Sequence record: NZ_CP114581.1 | Source: a plasmid | Reading direction: 5' to 3' (one strand) | DNA length: 41,842 nt | In this document: piece after piece, positions 13,542 to 41,842 of the stretch | How positions within the stretch are numbered: position 1 is the stretch's first letter | Layout of the letters: every line of letters begins with the position of its first letter | Program-made: the position numbers and the translations under genes | Notes under the pieces: model-generated | The model's input: the letters and a program-made list of their open reading frames with translations, nothing else | Told to the model about the DNA's origin: nothing | Database searches by the model: none

Positions 13542-13667
13542 TTATTTTTCATTTTTCATCACCTCTGCCGTATTTATGGGTTGCAACTCACCAGTGACTT
13601 TGGGGAGTAATTTATTTGATTGACAGGCAGTTAAAAGAAAAACAACAAGTATTAGATATTTGTTCAT
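13542..13667 (-). CDS. virB7: VirB7-like small lipoprotein (41 aa), not in the ORF track
   Basis: Hand-translated from ATG 13667..13665: MNKYLILVVFLLTACQSNKLLPKVTGELQPINTAEVMKNEK, stop TAA. It has a classic lipobox LLTAC and occupies the VirB7 slot between virB6 and virB8. Confidence 0.5.
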   Translation of the reverse strand: MNKYLILVVFLLTACQSNKLLPKVTGELQPINTAEVMKNEK

Positions 13668-13668
13668 T

Positions 13669-14703
13669 TTATGTTCCATAACGTTTTCTCACATTATCAA
13701 TCGAGGCTTGCCGACGCGATTTTGCCGAGTTAGGCGCAGACGAACCACTATTCCCACTCGCTGAAGCCCCATTCCAGCCCCTATCTCGATTACTTTTACC
13801 CATATTTGACGCGGTATTTCCTGCTTTTCTGATACCTTTAAATGCCATTACAGCAGCTCCTGCAACTCCCATCATTGCCATACCCTGAACTGCACCGTCT
13901 ACACCTACCCCTGCTAGTTGAGTTGCAAAGTTTTTAGCTAAAATCATTACAAATACCATAAATAATCCAGCCGCTGCCGCAGTTGCCCCTAATTGCATGA
14001 GATTAGCTTCCGCAGCTTGAGCCACCGAAACGCTCAAAACAATATTCAAAAACGACATACCCGCCCGTAACGCTAACGAACCAAACATAACAATGAATAA
14101 AGAACTGAAAATCAGTTGTAACCAGTTATTGAACATTTGCCGTAAAAAACCAAACATCAGACACAAAATGAAAATAGGAGCCGTTGTCGTCAGCAGTAAT
14201 AAAGTAATTTCAGCAGCAAAAAATACGAATGAGCAAGTAAGTAAAGCAGCCAACCCTCCAAAATAAGTAAGAAATGAGCCAATTCCCCCATCAACTTTCA
14301 CATACGTTGATGTATCCTTTGACATTATATGTGCAGCAACCTGAGATGTTTTAACCCACAGTTGATCCATCCACTTCCAAGGATCACCACCTGCCAAAGT
14401 GTCGCGCAATCCGTAAATAGCATCGGTGCTGGCACTCAGCCAGCCCCCGCTATTTTTAATAAACATCAAGATGATAGTAAAACGCGCCAAGTTCCAAATA
14501 AAATCAGGCACAGGCGTTTTATTTTTTAAAGCTAGCGTACTGAATGCAAACCATAAAATATAAATTGAAATCCCGTACTGTGCCAAATCCGCAGCAATTT
14601 GAGAGTATTCAGAAACCTTATTTGCCACTGTTTTATTCAGCATATCCCAAATAACTTGATATGCTGTTTGAAAAAAGTCGGATGTAGCTGTCGCGTTTTC
14701 CAT
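13669..14703 (-). CDS. virB6: VirB6 polytopic inner-membrane T4SS protein
   Basis: 344 aa with multiple TM helices and a Gly/Ser/Asn-rich C-terminal tail. Position is conserved. Confidence 0.8.
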   Translation of the reverse strand: MENATATSDFFQTAYQVIWDMLNKTVANKVSEYSQIAADLAQYGISIYILWFAFSTLALKNKTPVPDFIWNLARFTIILMFIKNSGGWLSASTDAIYGLRDTLAGGDPWKWMDQLWVKTSQVAAHIMSKDTSTYVKVDGGIGSFLTYFGGLAALLTCSFVFFAAEITLLLLTTTAPIFILCLMFGFLRQMFNNWLQLIFSSLFIVMFGSLALRAGMSFLNIVLSVSVAQAAEANLMQLGATAAAAGLFMVFVMILAKNFATQLAGVGVDGAVQGMAMMGVAGAAVMAFKGIRKAGNTASNMGKSNRDRGWNGASASGNSGSSAPNSAKSRRQASIDNVRKRYGT

Positions 14704-14710
14704 AATTTAC

Positions 14711-14962
14711 CTATTCTTTGTTTTGTGTTTTCTTATATGCATCCATAAAAGATGGTGATTTTGCTGTTAATTGTTTATGACGGAATAATCCATCTTTTGC
14801 ATTTCGGCAATTTTCACTATCATTTCCGTTGGAAGAACATTCCGTTACTTTTTTCTGTGCTTCATCTGCATGTTCTTGCCACCATTGAACTGATTTCACT
14901 TCTTCACCACATGCCGATAGAAAGAGAATAGATACTGCGCCAATTAATAATTTTGTTTTCAT
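14711..14962 (-). CDS. small lipoprotein, Eex-like entry-exclusion candidate
   Basis: 83 aa with lipobox FLSAC|G. It lies between virB5 and virB6, exactly where eex sits in pKM101-type operons. Confidence 0.45.
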   Translation of the reverse strand: MKTKLLIGAVSILFLSACGEEVKSVQWWQEHADEAQKKVTECSSNGNDSENCRNAKDGLFRHKQLTAKSPSFMDAYKKTQNKE

Positions 14963-31350: not shown

Positions 31351-31674
31351 TATTTCTTGTAATTTTAAGGCTTTGAGAGGGATTTCGATGCAAAAAATAG
31401 TTTTGTTAAAATGTTTCTTAATTGTTTCAATTTTAACAAAAAACAAACAATGGAATTTTGGCGGTTTTAATAACAGAAATCTTCCTGTTTTAGCAGGTAG
31501 AGAGTATGAGTGACAGGGTAACAGTGATTTTTATCACTAAAGCCAGCGATTTAACATAATGGGTCTTATGTGATCCAGTTTTTTTATTATTAGTATTAAT
31601 TAATGGTAAAATTCACAACAAATAGCTATAATAGACATTCAAGCCATTTTGTACTTTTTTACGGAGTGTTACTT

Positions 31675-31938
31675 ATGGAAATTATTCCTGCTCAACTCGC
31701 CAAAAATCAATTTGGTGATTTACTAATGAAAGCTCAACGTGAACCTGTCCAGATCAGCAAACATGGAAAGCGTGTAGCTGTAGTCATTTCTCCAGACGAA
31801 TATGACCAATTTACACAGTTGAAGTTACAAAATTTAAAATCTATTTTGGCCGAATCTATTGAACAAGCAGAACGGGGAGAGTTACATCATATTGATGATG
31901 TTTTTGCACCTTTAACTAGCAATGAAATTGAAGGTTAA
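31675..31938 (+). CDS. Phd/YefM-family antitoxin
   Basis: Likely start MEIIPAQLAKNQF at 31675; the ORF track begins at 31603. Pattern is typical of YefM. Confidence 0.65.
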   Translation: MEIIPAQLAKNQFGDLLMKAQREPVQISKHGKRVAVVISPDEYDQFTQLKLQNLKSILAESIEQAERGELHHIDDVFAPLTSNEIEG

Positions 31939-31946
31939 TCTTATAA

Positions 31947-32249
31947 ATGAGTGTTCTATTTACCAAGAAAGCAAAAGAGCATATTCGCACCATAAGACGA
32001 TATTCTTTGACCCATTGGGGAAAAAATGTAGCTGAAACTTACATAAATTGCTTAAGAATCACAATAATCAATATTATTGAAAAACAACCCTCTATTGGTA
32101 TAGATCGTAGTGATGACCTTTTTACAGGAATAAGAAGTTTTCCTGTAGAAAGTCATATTATTTACTATCGAGAAGTTGAGAATGGAATAGAAGTATTAGC
32201 AGTATTACATCAATCTCAAGATCCATATATTCATATAAAAAGGGATTAA
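31947..32249 (+). CDS. parE: ParE/RelE-superfamily toxin
   Basis: 100 aa, 8 nt downstream of the antitoxin gene. ParE-like C-terminal region HIIYYREVENGIEVLAVLHQSQD. Confidence 0.65.
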   Translation: MSVLFTKKAKEHIRTIRRYSLTHWGKNVAETYINCLRITIINIIEKQPSIGIDRSDDLFTGIRSFPVESHIIYYREVENGIEVLAVLHQSQDPYIHIKRD

Positions 32250-32389
32250 TTTTTCCCTGTCATATCAATAGAGGAATGATTAATTGTTATATTCATATTA
32301 AACCCTAGCCGTTTTAATGTTTCTTTATGTGTTTTACAAACAACTATGATATATTAATTATCATAGGTACTACGTAAAGGCAGGTTACT

Positions 32390-32908
32390 ATGGATAATAA
32401 AAATCACCCAAATGATCATTTGTTAATTAAGTGGGGTTCAATATTCATCTTTATTAGTGCAATTCCGATATTTATTATTTTTTATTTTAATGATATAGAT
32501 ATATTATTTGCTGTGTATGAAAAAATAAACAATATACCATCAACTTATTCATCAACATATCCAATAATTAGCAAGTTATCATTTTTTTACTGCAAATTAT
32601 CACCATTAATAGTATTGTTATTTTTCATTTTTTGTTATAAGAAACTGACTCTTGTAAAACCTATACCAATTAATAAATTAATAATAAATGTTATTTTTCC
32701 ATGTCTTGTGATTACGATTATTTCTCTATATGTTTTATATTTTTACAATACTGATATATCAGATAGTGGTTGGAGTATACTTAAAACTATATCCAGTAAT
32801 AAACACCTATTATTTGGTTACTATATAGCTATTTTTTTGGGATATTATGTTTGGTTGTTTCTTTTTTTTATTTCATTTATTTATCTTCCATTTAAATCAA
32901 TTCGTTGA
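32390..32908 (+). CDS. polytopic membrane protein, candidate bacteriocin immunity protein
   Basis: 172 aa with 4-5 TM helices and a very AT-rich gene. It is convergent with, and ends 80 nt from, the 3' end of the pore-forming bacteriocin gene. This is the canonical layout for immunity genes of pore-forming colicins. Confidence 0.5.
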   Translation: MDNKNHPNDHLLIKWGSIFIFISAIPIFIIFYFNDIDILFAVYEKINNIPSTYSSTYPIISKLSFFYCKLSPLIVLLFFIFCYKKLTLVKPIPINKLIINVIFPCLVITIISLYVLYFYNTDISDSGWSILKTISSNKHLLFGYYIAIFLGYYVWLFLFFISFIYLPFKSIR

Positions 32909-32987
32909 TAAATAGTGATTACTTAATTTTTATAAAAATAAATGGTTATCTTAGATAGTTTTAACTAAATAAGATAACCAAAAGTAA

Positions 32988-34454
32988 TTAATGAGCTTCT
33001 GGAATAAGTAAGTTGTTAATTTTATCAACAACTTTATCATCAATTAAGGATGCTAAATAACTAATTAACATTATAGTTGCTATAATTGCTAAGGTTGTAG
33101 GTAATGCTCCTATAGCTAAAAATGATGCAATTGATGAGATAAAACTTATTGCTATACTTATCGCTATCCCCGTAGCATATCCACTGATTATCATAGCTTC
33201 CACTTCCAGCATCAATGGTTTCCAGTTACCAGTCTCAAAACCAATAGCTGCTTTTTCGCGAAGCTTTTCAACACTCAAGACTTTACCCAATACCCCGAAT
33301 GACTTACCTAAACGCTGAAAATTTTCAGACAGGATTTTTGTATCCACATGGCGCACTGCATTAGCCAGTACCACTCTATCCGCTTGTTTTATCTTAATAT
33401 TAGGATTACGGTTGATTTTTTCCATCATTTTTAATGCATCAGACAAGCTACGTAATTTCTTTCCCTGAAAGTTACGTAAATCACTAGCGATCTCATTAGC
33501 AATAGTTTTGTATTTTTCCCCCAAGTGTTTACTAATTTTTTCGCCAGTATTAGTGATAATATCTGCCGCTCCCATCAATGCCTCTTTTTCTGCATCTTGG
33601 ATAAATTTTTTATTTTGTGGGTACGATTGATATGCATTAACAACCATTAATTTCGCTAAATTTTCTTTTTTTTCATCTTGTTCAATATTTAAATCTTTAT
33701 AGAATGCATTTAACTGGCGGCTTTCATATTGTGATGCTTTTATAATTTTCTTGGAGAATTTTTCTATAAAACCTAATTTATTTAATGTAAAAATAAATTC
33801 ATATTCCTTTATTTTTACATTATAATCAAGAATATTACTAGGCTCAGTTTTATAACCTAATATTGCAAATCTCTTTACCTCTTCTAATCTATCTTTTTTC
33901 TCATTTGGTATCCCCTTAGAATAGCGATTATAGGTTTTCTCTATATATTCCTCAGAAATATTTTGCACGTTTCCAGCGTCATCAAATGTGACGGTATGAA
34001 TATAATGCCCATTATAAATAGATACTCTAGCCTTATTATTTTTCAAATCAAAATAATCTTTTCTTATTCTCGACGTTAATCTCCCTAAATCTCGATCACG
34101 AGCCAACTTATTATTATAAGGTATCGGTAATTCAAGTTGGTTATTCTGAACATTATTTTTTTTATAATCAACACTATTACCTTTTCCATCAACTTCAATA
34201 TTATTAGTCGTATGACCATTTTGAGGATTAATAATCCTTGCTCCGTGTACAGTCACCGTAAAGTTTAATCCCTCAAGCCCTTCTATTGTTGACGTAGTAT
34301 ATGAAAACGAAGCATTTGGATCACTTAAACTGATAATATTTCTATCTCCTCCATCGCCTTTTCCTACTGGGCCACTACCTAAATCACCTTTACTAGGTCT
34401 ATCGGCAGTCACTGAAAGATGATCGGTCTCTGCTGAATGATTATTTTTACTCAT
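32988..34454 (-). CDS. pore-forming colicin-like bacteriocin
   Basis: 488 aa with a Gly-rich N-terminal domain (GDLGSGPVGKGDGGDRN), a central helical domain, and a C-terminal channel domain. The C-terminus ends in a ~40-aa hydrophobic hairpin (GYATGIAISIAISFISSIASFLAIGALPTTLAIIATIMLISYLASLIDDKVVDKIN). Its flanks (GNWKPLMLEVEAMI..., SLIDDKVVDKINNLL) parallel the colicin Ia/Ib/E1 C-termini, where ENWRPLFVKTETII precedes the hydrophobic hairpin and LIDESLVEKANKFWGI follows it. Confidence 0.8.
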   Translation of the reverse strand: MSKNNHSAETDHLSVTADRPSKGDLGSGPVGKGDGGDRNIISLSDPNASFSYTTSTIEGLEGLNFTVTVHGARIINPQNGHTTNNIEVDGKGNSVDYKKNNVQNNQLELPIPYNNKLARDRDLGRLTSRIRKDYFDLKNNKARVSIYNGHYIHTVTFDDAGNVQNISEEYIEKTYNRYSKGIPNEKKDRLEEVKRFAILGYKTEPSNILDYNVKIKEYEFIFTLNKLGFIEKFSKKIIKASQYESRQLNAFYKDLNIEQDEKKENLAKLMVVNAYQSYPQNKKFIQDAEKEALMGAADIITNTGEKISKHLGEKYKTIANEIASDLRNFQGKKLRSLSDALKMMEKINRNPNIKIKQADRVVLANAVRHVDTKILSENFQRLGKSFGVLGKVLSVEKLREKAAIGFETGNWKPLMLEVEAMIISGYATGIAISIAISFISSIASFLAIGALPTTLAIIATIMLISYLASLIDDKVVDKINNLLIPEAH

Positions 34455-34490
34455 AAAAATTTCCTTTTTTTATTAAAAATCAGTCAATGA

Positions 34491-34510
34491 TACTGTATAT
34501 GCATACAGTA
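34491..34510. promoter_or_regulatory. LexA (SOS) box in the bacteriocin promoter
   Basis: TACTGTATATGCATACAGTA gives CTGT-N8-ACAG, a perfect gammaproteobacterial LexA consensus. The minus strand reads TTGACG-17/18 nt-TATATT(TA) directly followed by the box, 37 nt upstream of the start codon. This matches colicin promoter architecture. Confidence 0.75.
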
Positions 34511-35293
34511 TAAATATAAACCTTATTCCTCCTCACGTCAATTTCTTTCTGAATAATTATTGAATATAAAAAAATCTTATTTTTCAAAAAATTAAAAGGC
34601 GCTATTAGAAAATAATTGAAAAATTGGGGACGTAACGATATTGCTACCATAAGCAATTTAGGGAACGTTTGTTTTGTAGGAAGGAATTAAACACCGTAAC
34701 AACTTTCATGCTCTCCTAAAGTCACGCATTTAACCATATTGTGTCTTACGCGCTCCTCGTTTTTTGATTAGCTTAATTTTTTGAGTAGAGTTGCTGTGGC
34801 TAAAGCATGTTTCATGCAAGACACATTAATGTTGTAACTAAAGGTTCCTAATCTTATTCAAAGAATCTGGAACGGCCGCAACCAATCAGGAAGATGGCCA
34901 TCGCCATTGAGCGATTACCGGCGATTCTATGAATCTTTGTTTTACAGTAAGTTAGGTTTTTTCAGTGTAAAAAATATCAGTGAGTATTTTTGAATGAGAC
35001 AAAAAGACGTTGTATTACGTGAATTTTAGCGTAATGGCAGGGGGATTAGTGGTCAAATTTCACGTAAATGCACCAGATTAATCAGTTATGGAGCGTCATA
35101 GTGCTAATTGCGTGCTGTTTTGTTCAACTTTTGGTAATCTTTCAGCGGGTGCTTGATCCTGTCCGGTTCAAGCATTTAGTGAGAGCCAGATAGAAGAAAG
35201 CCCCGATAAGGTTATTTATTACCATAATCGAGGCTGCAATTCTCTACTTAGCACTAGAAATTGTGCCTCCTAATAAGTTAGGAGTCAAGGAAA

Positions 35294-35440
35294 ATGACCA
35301 AGTACGCCCTGATAGGGCTGATTGCCGTTTGTTTAACGGTACTGTGTTTCTCTCTGTTAATGCGCGATAGACTCTGTTCTATCAGTGTGAATAGTGGGAA
35401 TACAGTAGTTCAGGCAACACTTTCTTACGAAGAACGGTGA
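35294..35440 (+). CDS. Hok/Gef-family type I toxin (PndA-like)
   Basis: 48 aa, MTKYALIGLIAVCLTVLCFSLLMRDRLCSISVNSGNTVVQATLSYEER. It carries the TM helix, conserved Cys pair and GN.VV.A.L.YE tail of the Hok/SrnB/PndA family. Hand-translated; too short for the ORF track. Confidence 0.8.
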   Translation: MTKYALIGLIAVCLTVLCFSLLMRDRLCSISVNSGNTVVQATLSYEER

Positions 35441-35447
35441 TGCCTAG

Positions 35448-35477
35448 CGGGGGAGCATTCCCCCGCATTTTCTTTTT
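35448..35477 (+). terminator. rho-independent terminator of the hok-like mRNA
   Basis: GCGGGGGAGCATTCCCCCGC hairpin followed by ATTTTCTTTTT. Confidence 0.6.
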
Positions 35478-35508
35478 CTGTGTTTAGTTTAGGTTTCAAG
35501 CACCCTTT

Positions 35509-35974: not shown

Positions 35975-36121
35975 GGGGTCTGACGCTCAGTGGAACGAAA
36001 ACTCACGTTAAGGGGTTTTGGTCATGAGATTATCAAAAAGGATCTTCACCTAGATCCTTTTAAATTAAAAATGAAGTTTTAAATCAATCTAAAGTATATA
36101 TGAGTAAACTTGGTCTGACAG

Positions 36122-36994
<873 letters not shown>

Positions 36995-37164
36995 TCAATA
37001 TTATTGAAGCATTTACCAGGGTTATTGTCTCATGAGCGGATACATATTTGAATGTATTTAGAAAAATAAACAAATAGGGGTTCCGCGCACATTTCCCCGA
37101 AAAGTGCCACCTGACGTCTAAGAAACCATTATTATCATGACATTAACCTATAAAAATAAGCGTA

Positions 37165-37885
<721 letters not shown>

Positions 37886-40800
37886 ATGCCCGTTGACTTT
37901 CTGACCACTGAGCAGACTGAAAGCTATGGCAGATTCACCGGTGAACCGGATGAGCTTCAGCTGGCACGATATTTTCACCTTGATGAAGCAGACAAGGAAT
38001 TTATCGGAAAAAGCAGAGGTGATCACAACCGTCTGGGCATTGCCCTGCAAATTGGATGTGTCCGTTTTCTGGGCACCTTCCTCACCGATATGAATCATAT
38101 TCCTTCCGGCGTCCGGCATTTTACCGCCAGACAGCTCGGGATTCGTGATATCACCGTTCTTGCAGAATACGGTCAGAGGGAAAATACCCGCCGTGAGCAT
38201 GCAGCGCTGATACGTCAGCACTATCAGTATCGTGAATTTGCCTGGCCCTGGACATTTCGCCTTACCCGTCTTTTATATACCCGGAGCTGGATAAGCAACG
38301 AACGTCCTGGCCTGCTTTTCGATCTGGCGACAGGGTGGCTTATGCAACATCGTATTATTCTCCCCGGAGCCACTACGCTGACCCGGTTGATTTCAGAGGT
38401 AAGGGAAAAGGCGACGTTGCGCCTGTGGAACAAACTGGCACTGATACCGTCAGCCGAACAGCGTTCACAGCTGGAGATGCTGCTGGGGCCAACTGATTGC
38501 AGCCGCCTGTCTTTACTGGAATCACTGAAAAAGGGCCCTGTGACCATCAGTGGTCCGGCGTTTAATGAAGCAATTGAACGCTGGAAAACTCTGAACGATT
38601 TTGGCCTGCATGCTGAAAACCTGAGTACACTCCCGGCTGTGCGCCTGAAAAATCTCGCACGTTATGCTGGTATGACTTCGGTGTTCAATATTGCCAGGAT
38701 GTCACCGCAGAAAAGGATGGCGGTTCTGGTTGCCTTTGTCCTTGCATGGGAAACGCTGGCGCTGGATGATGCATTGGACGTTCTGGACGCCATGCTGGCC
38801 GTTATCATCCGTGACGCCAGAAAGATTGGGCAGAAAAAACGGCTCCGCTCGCTGAAGGATCTGGATAAATCTGCATTGGCGCTCGCCAGCGCATGTTCGT
38901 ACCTGCTGAAAGAAGAAACACCGGACGAATCGATTCGTGCTGAGGTGTTCAGCTACATCCCAAGGCAAAAGCTGGCTGAAATCATCACGCTTGTCCGTGA
39001 AATTGCCCGGCCCTCAGACGATAATTTTCATGAAGAAATGGTGGAGCAGTACGGGCGCGTTCGTCGTTTCCTGCCCCATCTGCTGAATACCGTTAAATTT
39101 TCATCCGCACCTGCCGGGGTTACCACTCTGAATGCCTGTGACTACCTCAGCCGGGAGTTCAGCTCACGGCGGCAGTTTTTTGACGACGCACCAACGGAAA
39201 TTATCAGTCGGTCATGGAAACGGCTGGTGATTAACAAGGAAAAACATATCACCCGCAGGGGATACACGCTCTGCTTTCTCAGTAAACTGCAGGATAGTCT
39301 GAGGCGGAGGGATGTCTACGTTACCGGCAGTAACCGGTGGGGAGATCCTCGTGCAAGATTACTACAGGGTGCTGACTGGCAGGCAAACCGGATTAAGGTT
39401 TATCGTTCTTTGGGGCACCCGACAGACCCGCAGGAAGCAATAAAATCTCTGGGTCATCAGCTTGATAGTCGTTACAGACAGGTTGCTGCACGTCTTTGCG
39501 AAAATGAGGCTGTCGAACTCGATGTTTCTGGCCCGAAGCCCCGGTTGACAATTTCTCCCCTCGCCAGTCTTGATGAGCCGGACAGTCTGAAACGACTGAG
39601 CAAAATGATCAGTGATCTACTCCCTCCGGTGGATTTAACGGAGTTGCTGCTCGAAATTAACGCCCATACCGGATTTGCTGATGAGTTTTTCCATGCTAGT
39701 GAAGCCAGTGCCAGAGTTGATGATCTGCCCGTCAGCATCAGCGCCGTGCTGATGGCTGAAGCCTGCAATATCGGTCTGGAACCACTGATCAGATCAAATG
39801 TTCCTGCACTGACCCGACACCGGCTGAACTGGACAAAAGCGAACTATCTGCGGGCTGAAACTATCACCAGCGCTAATGCCAGACTGGTTGATTTTCAGGC
39901 AACGCTGCCACTGGCACAGATATGGGGTGGAGGAGAAGTGGCATCTGCAGATGGAATGCGCTTTGTTACGCCAGTCAGAACAATCAATGCCGGACCGAAC
40001 CGCAAATACTTTGGTAATAACAGAGGGATCACCTGGTACAACTTTGTGTCCGATCAGTATTCCGGCTTTCATGGCATCGTTATACCGGGGACGCTGAGGG
40101 ACTCTATCTTTGTGCTGGAAGGTCTTCTGGAACAGGAGACCGGGCTGAATCCAACCGAAATTATGACCGATACAGCAGGTGCCAGCGAACTTGTCTTTGG
40201 CCTTTTCTGGCTGCTGGGATACCAGTTTTCTCCACGCCTGGCTGATGCCGGTGCTTCGGTTTTCTGGCGAATGGACCATGATGCCGACTATGGCGTGCTG
40301 AATGATATTGCCAGAGGGCAATCAGATCCCCGAAAAATAGTCCTTCAGTGGGACGAAATGATCCGGACCGCTGGCTCCCTGAAGCTGGGCAAAGTACAGG
40401 TTTCAGTGCTGGTCCGTTCATTGCTGAAAAGTGAACGTCCTTCCGGACTGACTCAGGCAATCATTGAAGTGGGGCGCATCAACAAAACGCTGTATCTGCT
40501 TAATTATATTGATGATGAAGATTACCGCCGGCGCATTCTGACCCAGCTTAATCGGGGAGAAAGTCGCCATGCCGTTGCCAGAGCCATCTGTCACGGTCAA
40601 AAAGGTGAGATAAGAAAACGATATACCGACGGTCAGGAAGATCAACTGGGCACACTGGGGCTGGTCACTAACGCCGTCGTGTTATGGAACACTATTTATA
40701 TGCAGGCAGCCCTGGATCATCTCCGGGCGCAGGGTGAAACACTGAATGATGAAGATATCGCACGCCTCTCCCCGCTTTGCCACGGACATATCAATATGCT

Positions 40801-40891
40801 CGGCCATTATTCCTTCACGCTGGCAGAACTGGTGACCAAAGGACATCTGAGACCATTAAAAGAGGCGTCAGAGGCAGAAAACGTTGCTTAA
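37886..40891 (+). CDS. tnpA: Tn3 transposase
   Basis: 1001 aa beginning MPVDFLTTEQTESYGRF. The ORF track's 1054-aa version starts at an upstream in-frame ATG inside res. Confidence 0.9.
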   Translation: MPVDFLTTEQTESYGRFTGEPDELQLARYFHLDEADKEFIGKSRGDHNRLGIALQIGCVRFLGTFLTDMNHIPSGVRHFTARQLGIRDITVLAEYGQRENTRREHAALIRQHYQYREFAWPWTFRLTRLLYTRSWISNERPGLLFDLATGWLMQHRIILPGATTLTRLISEVREKATLRLWNKLALIPSAEQRSQLEMLLGPTDCSRLSLLESLKKGPVTISGPAFNEAIERWKTLNDFGLHAENLSTLPAVRLKNLARYAGMTSVFNIARMSPQKRMAVLVAFVLAWETLALDDALDVLDAMLAVIIRDARKIGQKKRLRSLKDLDKSALALASACSYLLKEETPDESIRAEVFSYIPRQKLAEIITLVREIARPSDDNFHEEMVEQYGRVRRFLPHLLNTVKFSSAPAGVTTLNACDYLSREFSSRRQFFDDAPTEIISRSWKRLVINKEKHITRRGYTLCFLSKLQDSLRRRDVYVTGSNRWGDPRARLLQGADWQANRIKVYRSLGHPTDPQEAIKSLGHQLDSRYRQVAARLCENEAVELDVSGPKPRLTISPLASLDEPDSLKRLSKMISDLLPPVDLTELLLEINAHTGFADEFFHASEASARVDDLPVSISAVLMAEACNIGLEPLIRSNVPALTRHRLNWTKANYLRAETITSANARLVDFQATLPLAQIWGGGEVASADGMRFVTPVRTINAGPNRKYFGNNRGITWYNFVSDQYSGFHGIVIPGTLRDSIFVLEGLLEQETGLNPTEIMTDTAGASELVFGLFWLLGYQFSPRLADAGASVFWRMDHDADYGVLNDIARGQSDPRKIVLQWDEMIRTAGSLKLGKVQVSVLVRSLLKSERPSGLTQAIIEVGRINKTLYLLNYIDDEDYRRRILTQLNRGESRHAVARAICHGQKGEIRKRYTDGQEDQLGTLGLVTNAVVLWNTIYMQAALDHLRAQGETLNDEDIARLSPLCHGHINMLGHYSFTLAELVTKGHLRPLKEASEAENVA

Positions 40892-41022
40892 CGTGAGTTT
40901 TCGTTCCACTGAGCGTCAGACCCCTATTAGGGGCAACAAACCTATTTAACCATTCGTAATATATGACATTAATAGGTCTGCACTTTCTGAACCCCTCAGA
41001 TTCAATGTGCGCAATATTTCGT

Positions 41023-41842
41023 GGCACTGTTGCAAATAGTCGGTGGTGATAAACTTATCATCCCCTTTTGCTGATGGAGCTGCACATGAACCCATTCAAA
41101 GGCCGGCATTTTCAGCGTGACATCATTCTGTGGGCCGTACGCTGGTACTGCAAATACGGCATCAGTTACCGTGAGCTGCAGGAGATGCTGGCTGAACGCG
41201 GAGTGAATGTCGATCACTCCACGATTTACCGCTGGGTTCAGCGTTATGCGCCTGAAATGGAAAAACGGCTGCGCTGGTACTGGCGTAACCCTTCCGATCT
41301 TTGCCCGTGGCACATGGATGAAACCTACGTGAAGGTCAATGGCCGCTGGGCGTATCTGTACCGGGCCGTCGACAGCCGGGGCCGCACTGTCGATTTTTAT
41401 CTCTCCTCCCGTCGTAACAGCAAAGCTGCATACCGGTTTCTGGGTAAAATCCTCAACAACGTGAAGAAGTGGCAGATCCCGCGATTCATCAACACGGATA
41501 AAGCGCCCGCCTATGGTCGCGCGCTTGCTCTGCTCAAACGCGAAGGCCGGTGCCCGTCTGACGTTGAACACCGACAGATTAAGTACCGGAACAACGTGAT
41601 TGAATGCGATCATGGCAAACTGAAACGGATAATCGGCGCCACGCTGGGATTTAAATCCATGAAGACGGCTTACGCCACCATCAAAGGTATTGAGGTGATG
41701 CGTGCACTACGCAAAGGCCAGGCCTCAGCATTTTATTATGGTGATCCCCTGGGCGAAATGCGCCTGGTAAGCAGAGTTTTTGAAATGTAAGGCCTTTGAA
41801 TAAGACAAAAGGCTGCCTCATCGCTAACTTTGCAACAGTGCC
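41023..41842 (+). mobile_element. IS26 (IS6 family), complete 820 bp
   Basis: Terminal IRs GGCACTGTTGCAAA at 41023 and ...TTTGCAACAGTGCC at the window end. The internal sequence encodes Tnp26. Confidence 0.9.
41086..41790 (+). CDS. tnpA: IS26 transposase Tnp26
   Basis: 234 aa, MNPFKGRHFQRDIILWAVRWYCKYGISYRELQEMLAERGVNVDHSTIYRWVQRYAPE..., the IS26 DDE transposase. The ORF track starts 6 codons upstream. Confidence 0.9.
   Translation: MNPFKGRHFQRDIILWAVRWYCKYGISYRELQEMLAERGVNVDHSTIYRWVQRYAPEMEKRLRWYWRNPSDLCPWHMDETYVKVNGRWAYLYRAVDSRGRTVDFYLSSRRNSKAAYRFLGKILNNVKKWQIPRFINTDKAPAYGRALALLKREGRCPSDVEHRQIKYRNNVIECDHGKLKRIIGATLGFKSMKTAYATIKGIEVMRALRKGQASAFYYGDPLGEMRLVSRVFEM

Follow-up and report, generated by a model that had tools for sequence, protein, structure and literature searches.

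A LexA-box-controlled, colicin A/S4-type pore-forming bacteriocin module predicted on pHI4320-type IncX8 plasmids of Proteus mirabilis

What kind of pore-forming bacteriocin is encoded by the two convergent genes at positions 32390 to 34560 of a 41,842-nucleotide stretch of plasmid DNA (sequence record NZ_CP114581.1; the whole stretch is referred to as the window), and how might its product be controlled, delivered and neutralized? The first-pass annotation, made from the sequence alone, described a colicin-like pore-forming toxin gene with a LexA box and a convergent membrane immunity gene on a conjugative plasmid of low guanine-plus-cytosine (GC) content. This outline is upheld by matches to the Pfam families PF01024 and PF03857, by the promoter and its LexA box and by IncX8 typing, and public records annotate the locus in the same way. 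Window positions 31500-35000 recur with 100% identity in pHI4320 (NC_010555.1), the plasmid of Proteus mirabilis HI4320, and in several sibling plasmids; pHI4320 spans 36,289 bp and is typed as IncX8, MOBP, MPF_T and conjugative. The locus is the two-gene bacteriocin module of the P. mirabilis pHI4320-type IncX8 plasmids. Its toxin corresponds to WP_012368891.1, which carries the RefSeq label ‘colicin-like pore-forming protein’ and the published name PMIP30, and the toxin gene is 100% identical in pHI4320 and at least six other plasmids. In a transposon-sequencing paper, PMIP30 is called ‘a putative colicin’ and PMIP31 ‘a colicin immunity protein’ (PMC5484520). Given this identity with annotated pHI4320 genes, the sequence-only finding constitutes a correct rediscovery, and the novelty it implied is not borne out, since both genes are already named in the literature and the toxin is annotated in RefSeq. 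The pHI4320 locus shows no sequence difference from the one described here, and the window consists of the same backbone and, at the right end, a Tn3-family insertion. The locus is therefore already known and annotated; to judge from its sequence, it is a group PI pore-forming bacteriocin with its immunity partner on a well-known reference plasmid. Taken as a whole, the explanation developed below, an SOS-controlled group PI pore-forming bacteriocin accompanied by an A-type immunity protein on an IncX8 plasmid, is considered very probable.

The class of the toxin is indicated by its C-terminal domain. Residues 288-482 match PF01024 with E=4.3e-19 (69.5 bits against a Pfam cutoff of 23.4), and the profile search that had been proposed for this region thus returns a match far above the cutoff. 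In phmmer searches of the PDB, the toxin matches eight solved colicin or pyocin pore domains. Colicin A (1col) is the best sequence match (E=2.6e-48, 45% identity over the pore domain), followed by S4 (1.3e-46), N (2.4e-45) and B (6e-39), and then more weakly by pyocin S5 (6e-20), Ib (6.3e-16), Ia (1.3e-15) and E1 (1.9e-9), which places Ib and Ia sixth and seventh. A Kyte-Doolittle scan locates hydrophobic segments centred on residues 427-464. The hydrophobic hairpin of channel-forming colicins, anticipated in the first-pass annotation, is present at about residues 420-470; in the alignments to colicins A, S4 and N, this stretch corresponds to their long hairpin, and no deletion interrupts it. 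The flanking motifs had been described as closely parallel to colicins Ia and Ib. This parallel is not sustained, as Ia and Ib match at an E-value of about 1e-15, compared with 1e-39 to 1e-48 for A, S4, N and B. Colicins Ia and Ib possess long coiled-coil receptor domains, which are absent from the toxin. Group PI pore domains are those of colicins A, B, U, Y, N and S4, and Ia and Ib form group PIIb (Arnold et al. 2009, PMC2649078). By sequence comparison, the toxin pore domain is assigned to group PI, of the colicin A/S4/N/B type, and neither to the E1/5/10/K group nor to the Ia/Ib type (1cii, 8iom), which falls in subgroup PIIb.

The immunity gene converges on the toxin gene, leaving a gap of 79 nt between the two stop codons. 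Its 172-residue product matches PF03857 (Colicin_im) with E=3.6e-13 (50.1 bits against a cutoff of 25.8) and displays four hydrophobic segments in a Kyte-Doolittle profile, which agrees with the convergent, polytopic membrane immunity gene initially proposed. These features fit the A-type immunity proteins found together with pores of group PI, such as Cai, the immunity protein of colicin A. The immunity proteins of Ia and Ib are shorter, with three helices, and differ in type from the four-segment PF03857 protein found here. An inverted repeat between the stop codons may be a bidirectional terminator; its sequence is AT-rich, and the terminator scan did not report it.

No lysis gene is seen near the locus, where all open reading frames (ORFs) of at least 20 residues were examined, or in a lipobox scan of the whole window, which confirms the earlier reading on this point. 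In the colicin A operon, a lysis gene follows the immunity gene, and this element is missing here; colicins B, Ia and Ib work without one. The module had been described as Ia/Ib-like in layout. The convergent immunity gene and the missing lysis gene do agree with that description, but the same arrangement is common to colicin B, and the protein itself is not of the Ia/Ib type, so that the likeness to Ia and Ib, which are TonB-dependent pore formers, is one of layout. Two small lipoprotein ORFs occur elsewhere in the window (13542..13679 and 14711..14962), both inside the type IV secretion operon, and are annotated in pHI4320 as ‘conjugal transfer protein’ and ‘EexN family lipoprotein’. The 45-residue product of the former was considered as a lysis protein and rejected: its Lysis_col match extends over the signal peptide only and remains below the cutoff (E=0.064), and the ORF adjoins that of the EexN lipoprotein.

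Upstream of the toxin gene, a sigma-70 promoter matching 10 of 12 consensus positions, tied for the best such match within 32200..35500, is directly followed by a perfect LexA box (CTGTATGCATATACAG), as the first-pass annotation had stated. The window of 41.8 kb contains a single match to CTGT-N8-ACAG against an expected 0.24, and at least one match appears in 23 of 100 shuffled sequences; by itself, the count is weak evidence. The box becomes convincing through its placement directly after the toxin -10 hexamer and through its conservation in the promoters of the Morganella homologue and of a further homologous locus (L004). When the promoters of the four loci (Proteus, Morganella, L004 and Photorhabdus) are aligned, no block is better conserved than the box, and of the three homologue promoters that were read, two keep it in the same place. 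It is perfect in Morganella (CTGTATATATATACAG) and in L004 (CTGTATATTCACACAG), whereas the Photorhabdus box (L005 3930-3975 and L006 2430-2475) is degenerate, being broken by a 6-nt insertion and a CAG-to-TAG change (CTGTATATATTATCTTATATAG); the Photorhabdus homologue may have lost SOS control. No second LexA box is found in the window, and the adjoining CAGTATCATTGACTG is not a box. On these promoter features, SOS control of the toxin gene is regarded as a well-supported prediction.

The central region of the toxin was tested against colicin S4 because the phmmer alignment to S4 reached back to query residue 160. Taken alone, residues 1-285 give no PDB sequence match and nothing significant in Pfam or NCBIfam, and since such plain searches came back empty, profile comparison and a fold search were needed to reveal the relationship. 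In hhalign, a profile of six family members aligns with colicin S4 residues 166-303 at 95.6% probability (E=1.1e-8) and with an S4-like protein, P0007, at 97.7% (E=2.1e-12), the latter alignment covering both repeats. The AF2 (AlphaFold2) model of residues 119-295, with a mean predicted local distance difference test (pLDDT) score of 71.5, consists of two units, each with a three-stranded sheet followed by helices. This arrangement is the architecture of the duplicated OmpW-binding domain in colicin S4 (PMC2649078). When this model is searched against the PDB with Foldseek, colicin S4 (3few) is the sole significant match (E=1e-4, probability 1.0), the next lying at E=0.24. With the full-length model, S4 again comes first, over 409 columns with E=6e-13, and Ib (8iom) reaches only E=1.3e-2. 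Repeat 1 and repeat 2 of the domain do not match each other significantly in hhalign (3.5%), and both predicted β3-plus-helix units align with the two units of P0007. Identity to colicin S4 over the domain is about 19-22%. Profile and model together identify the central domain as a diverged S4-type receptor module, not an orphan. The original view that neither the N-terminal nor the central domain resembles any colicin thus survives for the N-terminal ~135 residues, which are family-specific, and fails for the central domain. Colicin S4 shares with the toxin a group PI pore and a homologous central domain, and provides the best whole-chain structural match; it depends on Tol and OmpF (PMC2649078), whereas the toxin has a TonB-box-like motif and no lysis gene. 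Colicin B carries a fused receptor and translocation domain that binds FepA; the receptor domain here is S4-like, and although colicin B (1rh1) has a group PI pore like that of the toxin, homology beyond the pore domain is not detected.

The N-terminal portion is the most restricted part of the protein. Residues 1-285 retrieve four cluster representatives among 1.84e9 proteins and five clusters among 5.8e9 in a profile search. Residues 1-141 have AF2 pLDDT values below 50, and the N-terminal region is predicted to be largely disordered. Its glycine richness, attributed earlier to a whole domain, is confined to a short stretch, with seven glycines in residues 20-37 and 16% glycine over residues 1-45. 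The N-terminal ~135 residues show no similarity to the N-terminal 160 residues of P0007 (hhalign probability 0.1%), and a translocation domain shared with this protein is rejected on that score. Across five aligned sequences, the N-terminus is variable except for an invariant D11 and V15. These residues delimit a pentapeptide at positions 11-15 that reads DHLSV in Proteus, DTMTV in Morganella, and DSITV, DSLTV or DSIEV in other homologues. These pentapeptides resemble DTMVV, the accepted TonB box of pesticin, and interaction with TonB is cited also for colicins B, D, M and Ia (PMC3390615). A TonB route is favoured because of the conserved D-x-x-x-V at residues 11-15 and the missing lysis gene, and import is tentatively read as TonB-dependent and colicin B-like, with a likelihood somewhat short of even. 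Colicin B has a TonB box near its N-terminus, a convergent immunity gene and no lysis gene, and, should the TonB reading be correct, would come closest to the toxin in overall logic.

Beyond the plasmids, the toxin belongs to a small family. All 19 PLSDB plasmids with the toxin gene, 18 from P. mirabilis and one from Providencia rettgeri, agree to 99% or better over the first 285 residues of the allele. Full-length chromosomal relatives occur in Morganella morganii (P0003/P0004, 54% identity) and Photorhabdus akhurstii (P0012/L006, about 36-37% identity), and further full-length relatives are present in a few other assemblies. By these searches, the family appears to comprise Proteus, Morganella and Photorhabdus, together with Providencia via the plasmid. 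The Morganella and Photorhabdus homologues have the same three-part architecture, the convergent immunity gene and the D-x-x-x-V motif, and differ in being chromosomal. The pairing of toxin and immunity gene is kept in Morganella, in Photorhabdus and at two metagenomic loci. All four homologous toxin genes examined have a convergent partner gene of 177-182 residues, and three of these partners (177-181 residues) match PF03857; the Photorhabdus partner is a 182-residue convergent ORF without a Pfam match. The Morganella partner is 73% identical to the plasmid immunity protein. In GC content, the colicin gene (32.4%) lies close to the backbone (34.3%) and the immunity gene is lower (22.4%). Backbone-like composition had been taken as a sign that the locus is native to its host. 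This argument is abandoned, since the module is of low GC in every host, Morganella included (40% for toxin and 24% for immunity gene, against 51% in the flank), and the GC match therefore says little about native origin.

As a separate observation on the chromosomal loci, an extra gene of 138-148 residues overlaps the start of the immunity gene in Morganella and Photorhabdus (L003 6062-6487, L005 6034-6450 and L006 4534-4980, all on the minus strand). The plasmid lacks this gene, Pfam does not recognize its product, and the Photorhabdus copy carries the lipoprotein signal LLLLSAC. The gene could encode a second protective factor or a release factor.

Published data sets provide indirect signs of expression and activity. 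In a saturated mariner library of HI4320, a stretch of about 500 bp within PMIP31 is free of insertions, and the largest insertion gap of the plasmid, 1,252 bp long, covers an intergenic region and part of PMIP30 (PMC5484520). During co-infection, insertions in PMIP31 are depleted 5.4- and 6.9-fold in bladder and kidney (Table S7 of that study), and insertions in PMIP30 about 2.4-fold in two conditions. An active bacteriocin would be expected to deplete immunity mutants among toxin-producing cells in a pool, and the depletion forms circumstantial evidence for one. The PMIP30 protein has been detected in the catheter-biofilm proteomes of one patient, under the name ‘colicin E6’ (PMC8260951). 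This label looks wrong because PMIP30 is a pore former by its PF01024 and PDB matches. The transposon-sequencing and proteomic data together suggest that the module is expressed. Colicin E6, for its part, is an rRNase colicin. The 1,252-bp gap itself (pHI4320 22752-~24000) corresponds to window ~34045-35293 and, by its geometry, agrees with the 839 bp of intergenic DNA upstream of the toxin gene together with ~410 bp at the start of that gene. The hok/sok module upstream accounts for the far end of the gap alone; for the remainder, toxicity from de-repression and shielding by H-NS are both possibilities.

Several observations weigh against the explanation as a whole. The toxin promoter has a single LexA box, and E. 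coli colicin operons usually have two overlapping ones. Among the structural data, the full-length AF2 model, built with nine sequences, has a pLDDT of only 42, and use was made of its secondary structure and its 3few ranking alone. In alignment and model, the helices of S4 that contact OmpW are poorly conserved and are shortened in repeat 1; the receptor is therefore not transferable from S4. At the N-terminus, DHLSV departs further from the canonical motif than any other version in the family, and strings resembling a TolB box lie just downstream of D-x-x-x-V in two homologues, DGSHGW in Morganella and GDYGWSSS in Photorhabdus. As to the published data, the in vivo condition in which PMIP31 was depleted yielded 909 genes as hits, and the insertion gaps could come from H-NS shielding of very AT-rich DNA and not from essentiality. 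The gap in PMIP31 was entertained as proof of an essential immunity gene and then downgraded: PMIP31 insertion mutants evidently existed, since they were scored in vivo, and H-NS shielding of DNA with 22% GC offers an alternative. Finally, no killing, SOS-induction, immunity or channel-formation experiment on PMIP30 or PMIP31 was found in the searchable literature, in which the two genes came up solely in the transposon-sequencing and proteomic studies.

The alternatives differ from this explanation at different steps, and the most serious concerns import. The same bacteriocin might enter through the Tol system in the manner of group A colicins, D-x-x-x-V being irrelevant and the Gly-rich segment representing a degenerate TolB-binding site. 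Colicin A has a TolB box, and none is present in the toxin. The closest characterized relatives by pore (A, S4 and N) and by receptor domain (S4) are Tol-dependent, S4 itself requiring Tol and OmpF (PMC2649078), and the Morganella and Photorhabdus strings stand at the aligned position and resemble the DGTGWSSE of unrelated pore colicins (P0008-P0010). These strings leave the ancestry ambiguous. The Proteus toxin, however, contains no DG[ST]GW-type string, its aligned GDLGSGP lacking the tryptophan, and the D-to-W spacing varies among homologues. The absence of a lysis gene would be unusual for a group A colicin, and the N-terminal region is unlike the N-terminal 160 residues of P0007. A Tol route is on balance judged unlikely, and a route of neither kind takes the share of probability left by these two. 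The Proteus, Morganella and Photorhabdus proteins could form a distinct bacteriocin lineage, in which a TonB-engaging N-terminus is joined to an S4-type tandem receptor domain retargeted to an outer-membrane protein of Morganellaceae; this is a possible but rather speculative proposal. Such a pairing has not been described among E. coli colicins.

The remaining alternatives concern whether the gene product is a diffusible weapon of group PI at all. An assignment to the Ia/Ib class, as first proposed, is supported by the matching gene layout and by the weak match of Ia and Ib to the pore domain. It is contradicted by the scores of A, S4, N and B, which are better by 24 to 33 orders of magnitude, by the alignment of the hairpin with the long group PI hairpin without deletion, by the four-segment PF03857 immunity protein and by the Foldseek ranking, in which Ib is far behind S4. 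The assignment is very improbable and may be taken as already refuted at the sequence level. It is also improbable, to a lesser degree, that the toxin gene is no longer a working weapon, whether as an addiction or immunity-only remnant or as a toxin that is never released. The missing lysis gene, the division of the pPM1162 gene into three coding sequences and the lack of a reported killing phenotype in the searchable literature would all suit such a state. Against it, the ORF is intact and, over its first 285 residues, nearly invariant in the 19 plasmids; the promoter, ribosome-binding site and LexA box are intact as well, the protein is detected in patient biofilms, insertions in the immunity gene are depleted, and colicins B, Ia and Ib function without a lysis gene. 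Colicin-like pore domains are also reused in contact-dependent toxins, and the protein might be an effector of contact-dependent inhibition (CDI) or of type VI secretion. Pfam detects no PAAR, Rhs, VENN or other delivery domain in it, however; an S4-type receptor-binding domain is present, the toxin has its own predicted LexA-controlled promoter, and the sole secretion system of the plasmid is conjugative. A contact-dependent effector is the least credible of these alternatives.

For the SOS-controlled group PI bacteriocin, the following mechanism is proposed. The LexA operator would lie over the predicted transcription start of a strong sigma-70 promoter, so that the toxin gene would be kept silent in the majority of cells and would be induced by DNA damage. 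As there is no lysis protein, release would occur through leakage or through lysis of other cause, as in colicins B, Ia and Ib. Through its central domain, the toxin would dock on an outer-membrane protein of a related cell within the Morganellaceae, whereupon the N-terminal region would thread through and engage an energized import system; import is the weakest step of the scheme. The pore domain would then insert its hydrophobic hairpin into the inner membrane and form a voltage-gated channel, leading to a depolarized cell, a mode of killing taken over from the established behaviour of these colicin families. Self-protection would be provided by the constitutively expressed A-type immunity protein, a four-helix protein of the inner membrane that would block the channel inside the membrane. 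The module would confer a competitive advantage on its host and stabilize the plasmid, since plasmid-free cells would become sensitive.

Table 1 Coordinates of the features of the bacteriocin locus and of the adjacent hok/sok module in the window.
Feature	Position	Strand	Basis
Immunity gene, 172 aa, four hydrophobic segments (PMIP31)	32390..32908	+	PF03857, hydropathy
18-nt inverted repeat between the convergent stop codons	32943..32980	.	89% complementary, 2-nt loop
Colicin-like pore-forming toxin gene, 488 aa	32988..34454	-	ORF, PF01024, colicin A match
Pore-forming domain, aa 286-488, colicin A/S4/N/B type (group PI, by sequence)	32991..33599	-	PF01024, phmmer
Hydrophobic helical hairpin, about aa 420-470	33045..33197	-	Kyte-Doolittle scan and colicin alignment
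Diverged colicin S4-type receptor-binding modules, probably in tandem, aa 146-285	33600..34019	-	hhalign, AF2, Foldseek
N-terminal ~135 aa, putative translocation region, family-specific, Gly-rich stretch at aa 20-37	34050..34454	-	Cluster searches
TonB-box-like pentapeptide DHLSV, aa 11-15	34410..34424	-	Family alignment
Ribosome-binding site AAGGA, 7 nt upstream of ATG	34462..34466	-	Sequence reading
Single LexA box CTGTATGCATATACAG	34493..34508	-	4 nt after the -10 hexamer, 38 nt upstream of ATG
Predicted sigma-70 promoter, TTGACG (34541..34536), 17 nt, TATATT (34518..34513)	34513..34541	-	10/12 match
sok RNA	35147..35306	+	Rfam RF01794, 104.7 bits
Hok/Gef ORF, 48 aa	35294..35440	+	ORF list, annotation
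Strong terminator after the Hok/Gef ORF	35447..35466		Terminator scan

Further features surround the module. A Phd/YefM-RelE/ParE toxin-antitoxin pair lies directly upstream of the immunity gene (window 31603-32249, plus strand), and a hok/sok post-segregational killing module is located about 700 nt upstream of the colicin promoter (window 35147-35440, plus strand), so that the colicin module is sandwiched between two plasmid-addiction systems. The non-coding segment 34717-35000 is 91-95% conserved in colicin-free plasmids of Providencia stuartii, Klebsiella pneumoniae, Proteus and Morganella, where the match is unannotated, and probably forms the upstream portion of a mobile hok/sok cassette. 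Towards the right end of the window, at ~36000-41842, the GC content climbs from about 34% to 46-52%, the sequence matches thousands of Enterobacterales plasmids and a Tn3-family transposase is encoded; for these reasons the region is taken to be an acquired transposon on the pHI4320-type backbone.

The public records of the two genes contain irregularities of their own. The PLSDB feature tables for pHI4320, p16Pre36-1 and pPM1162 (L001, L012, L011 and L013) lack the immunity ORF, and the protein accession series skips WP_012368892; in 2017 the gene was still listed as PMIP31 / PMI_RS18650. The table could be incomplete, or the gene could have been dropped at re-annotation. In pPM1162 (L011, NZ_CP089318.1, 1683-3146), the colicin gene is annotated as three separate coding sequences, one of which is a 277-residue ‘colicin-like pore-forming protein’ beginning near residue 137. 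The split stems either from genuine frameshifts or from errors in the sequencing.

In conclusion, to a locus already on record the present analysis adds the assignment of the pore to the A/S4 type in place of Ia/Ib, the S4-type and probably tandem receptor domain, the conserved TonB-box-like motif, the conservation of the LexA box and the range of the family. With the toxin, the S4 receptor domain, described in 2009 as unique, would gain a diverged relative, and colicin biology might gain a new pairing of import modules. The practical value is modest. The plasmid family is common in clinical isolates, with 19 PLSDB plasmids carrying a near-identical allele, some of them together with resistance transposons. 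Should the three genera indeed share a distinct lineage of the kind proposed, the toxin would be active in catheter biofilms and would be a possible narrow-spectrum anti-Proteus agent, as well as a probe for a new import route. A characterized Proteus-specific pore-forming bacteriocin could explain the dominance of strains in biofilms and could become a narrow-spectrum antibacterial.

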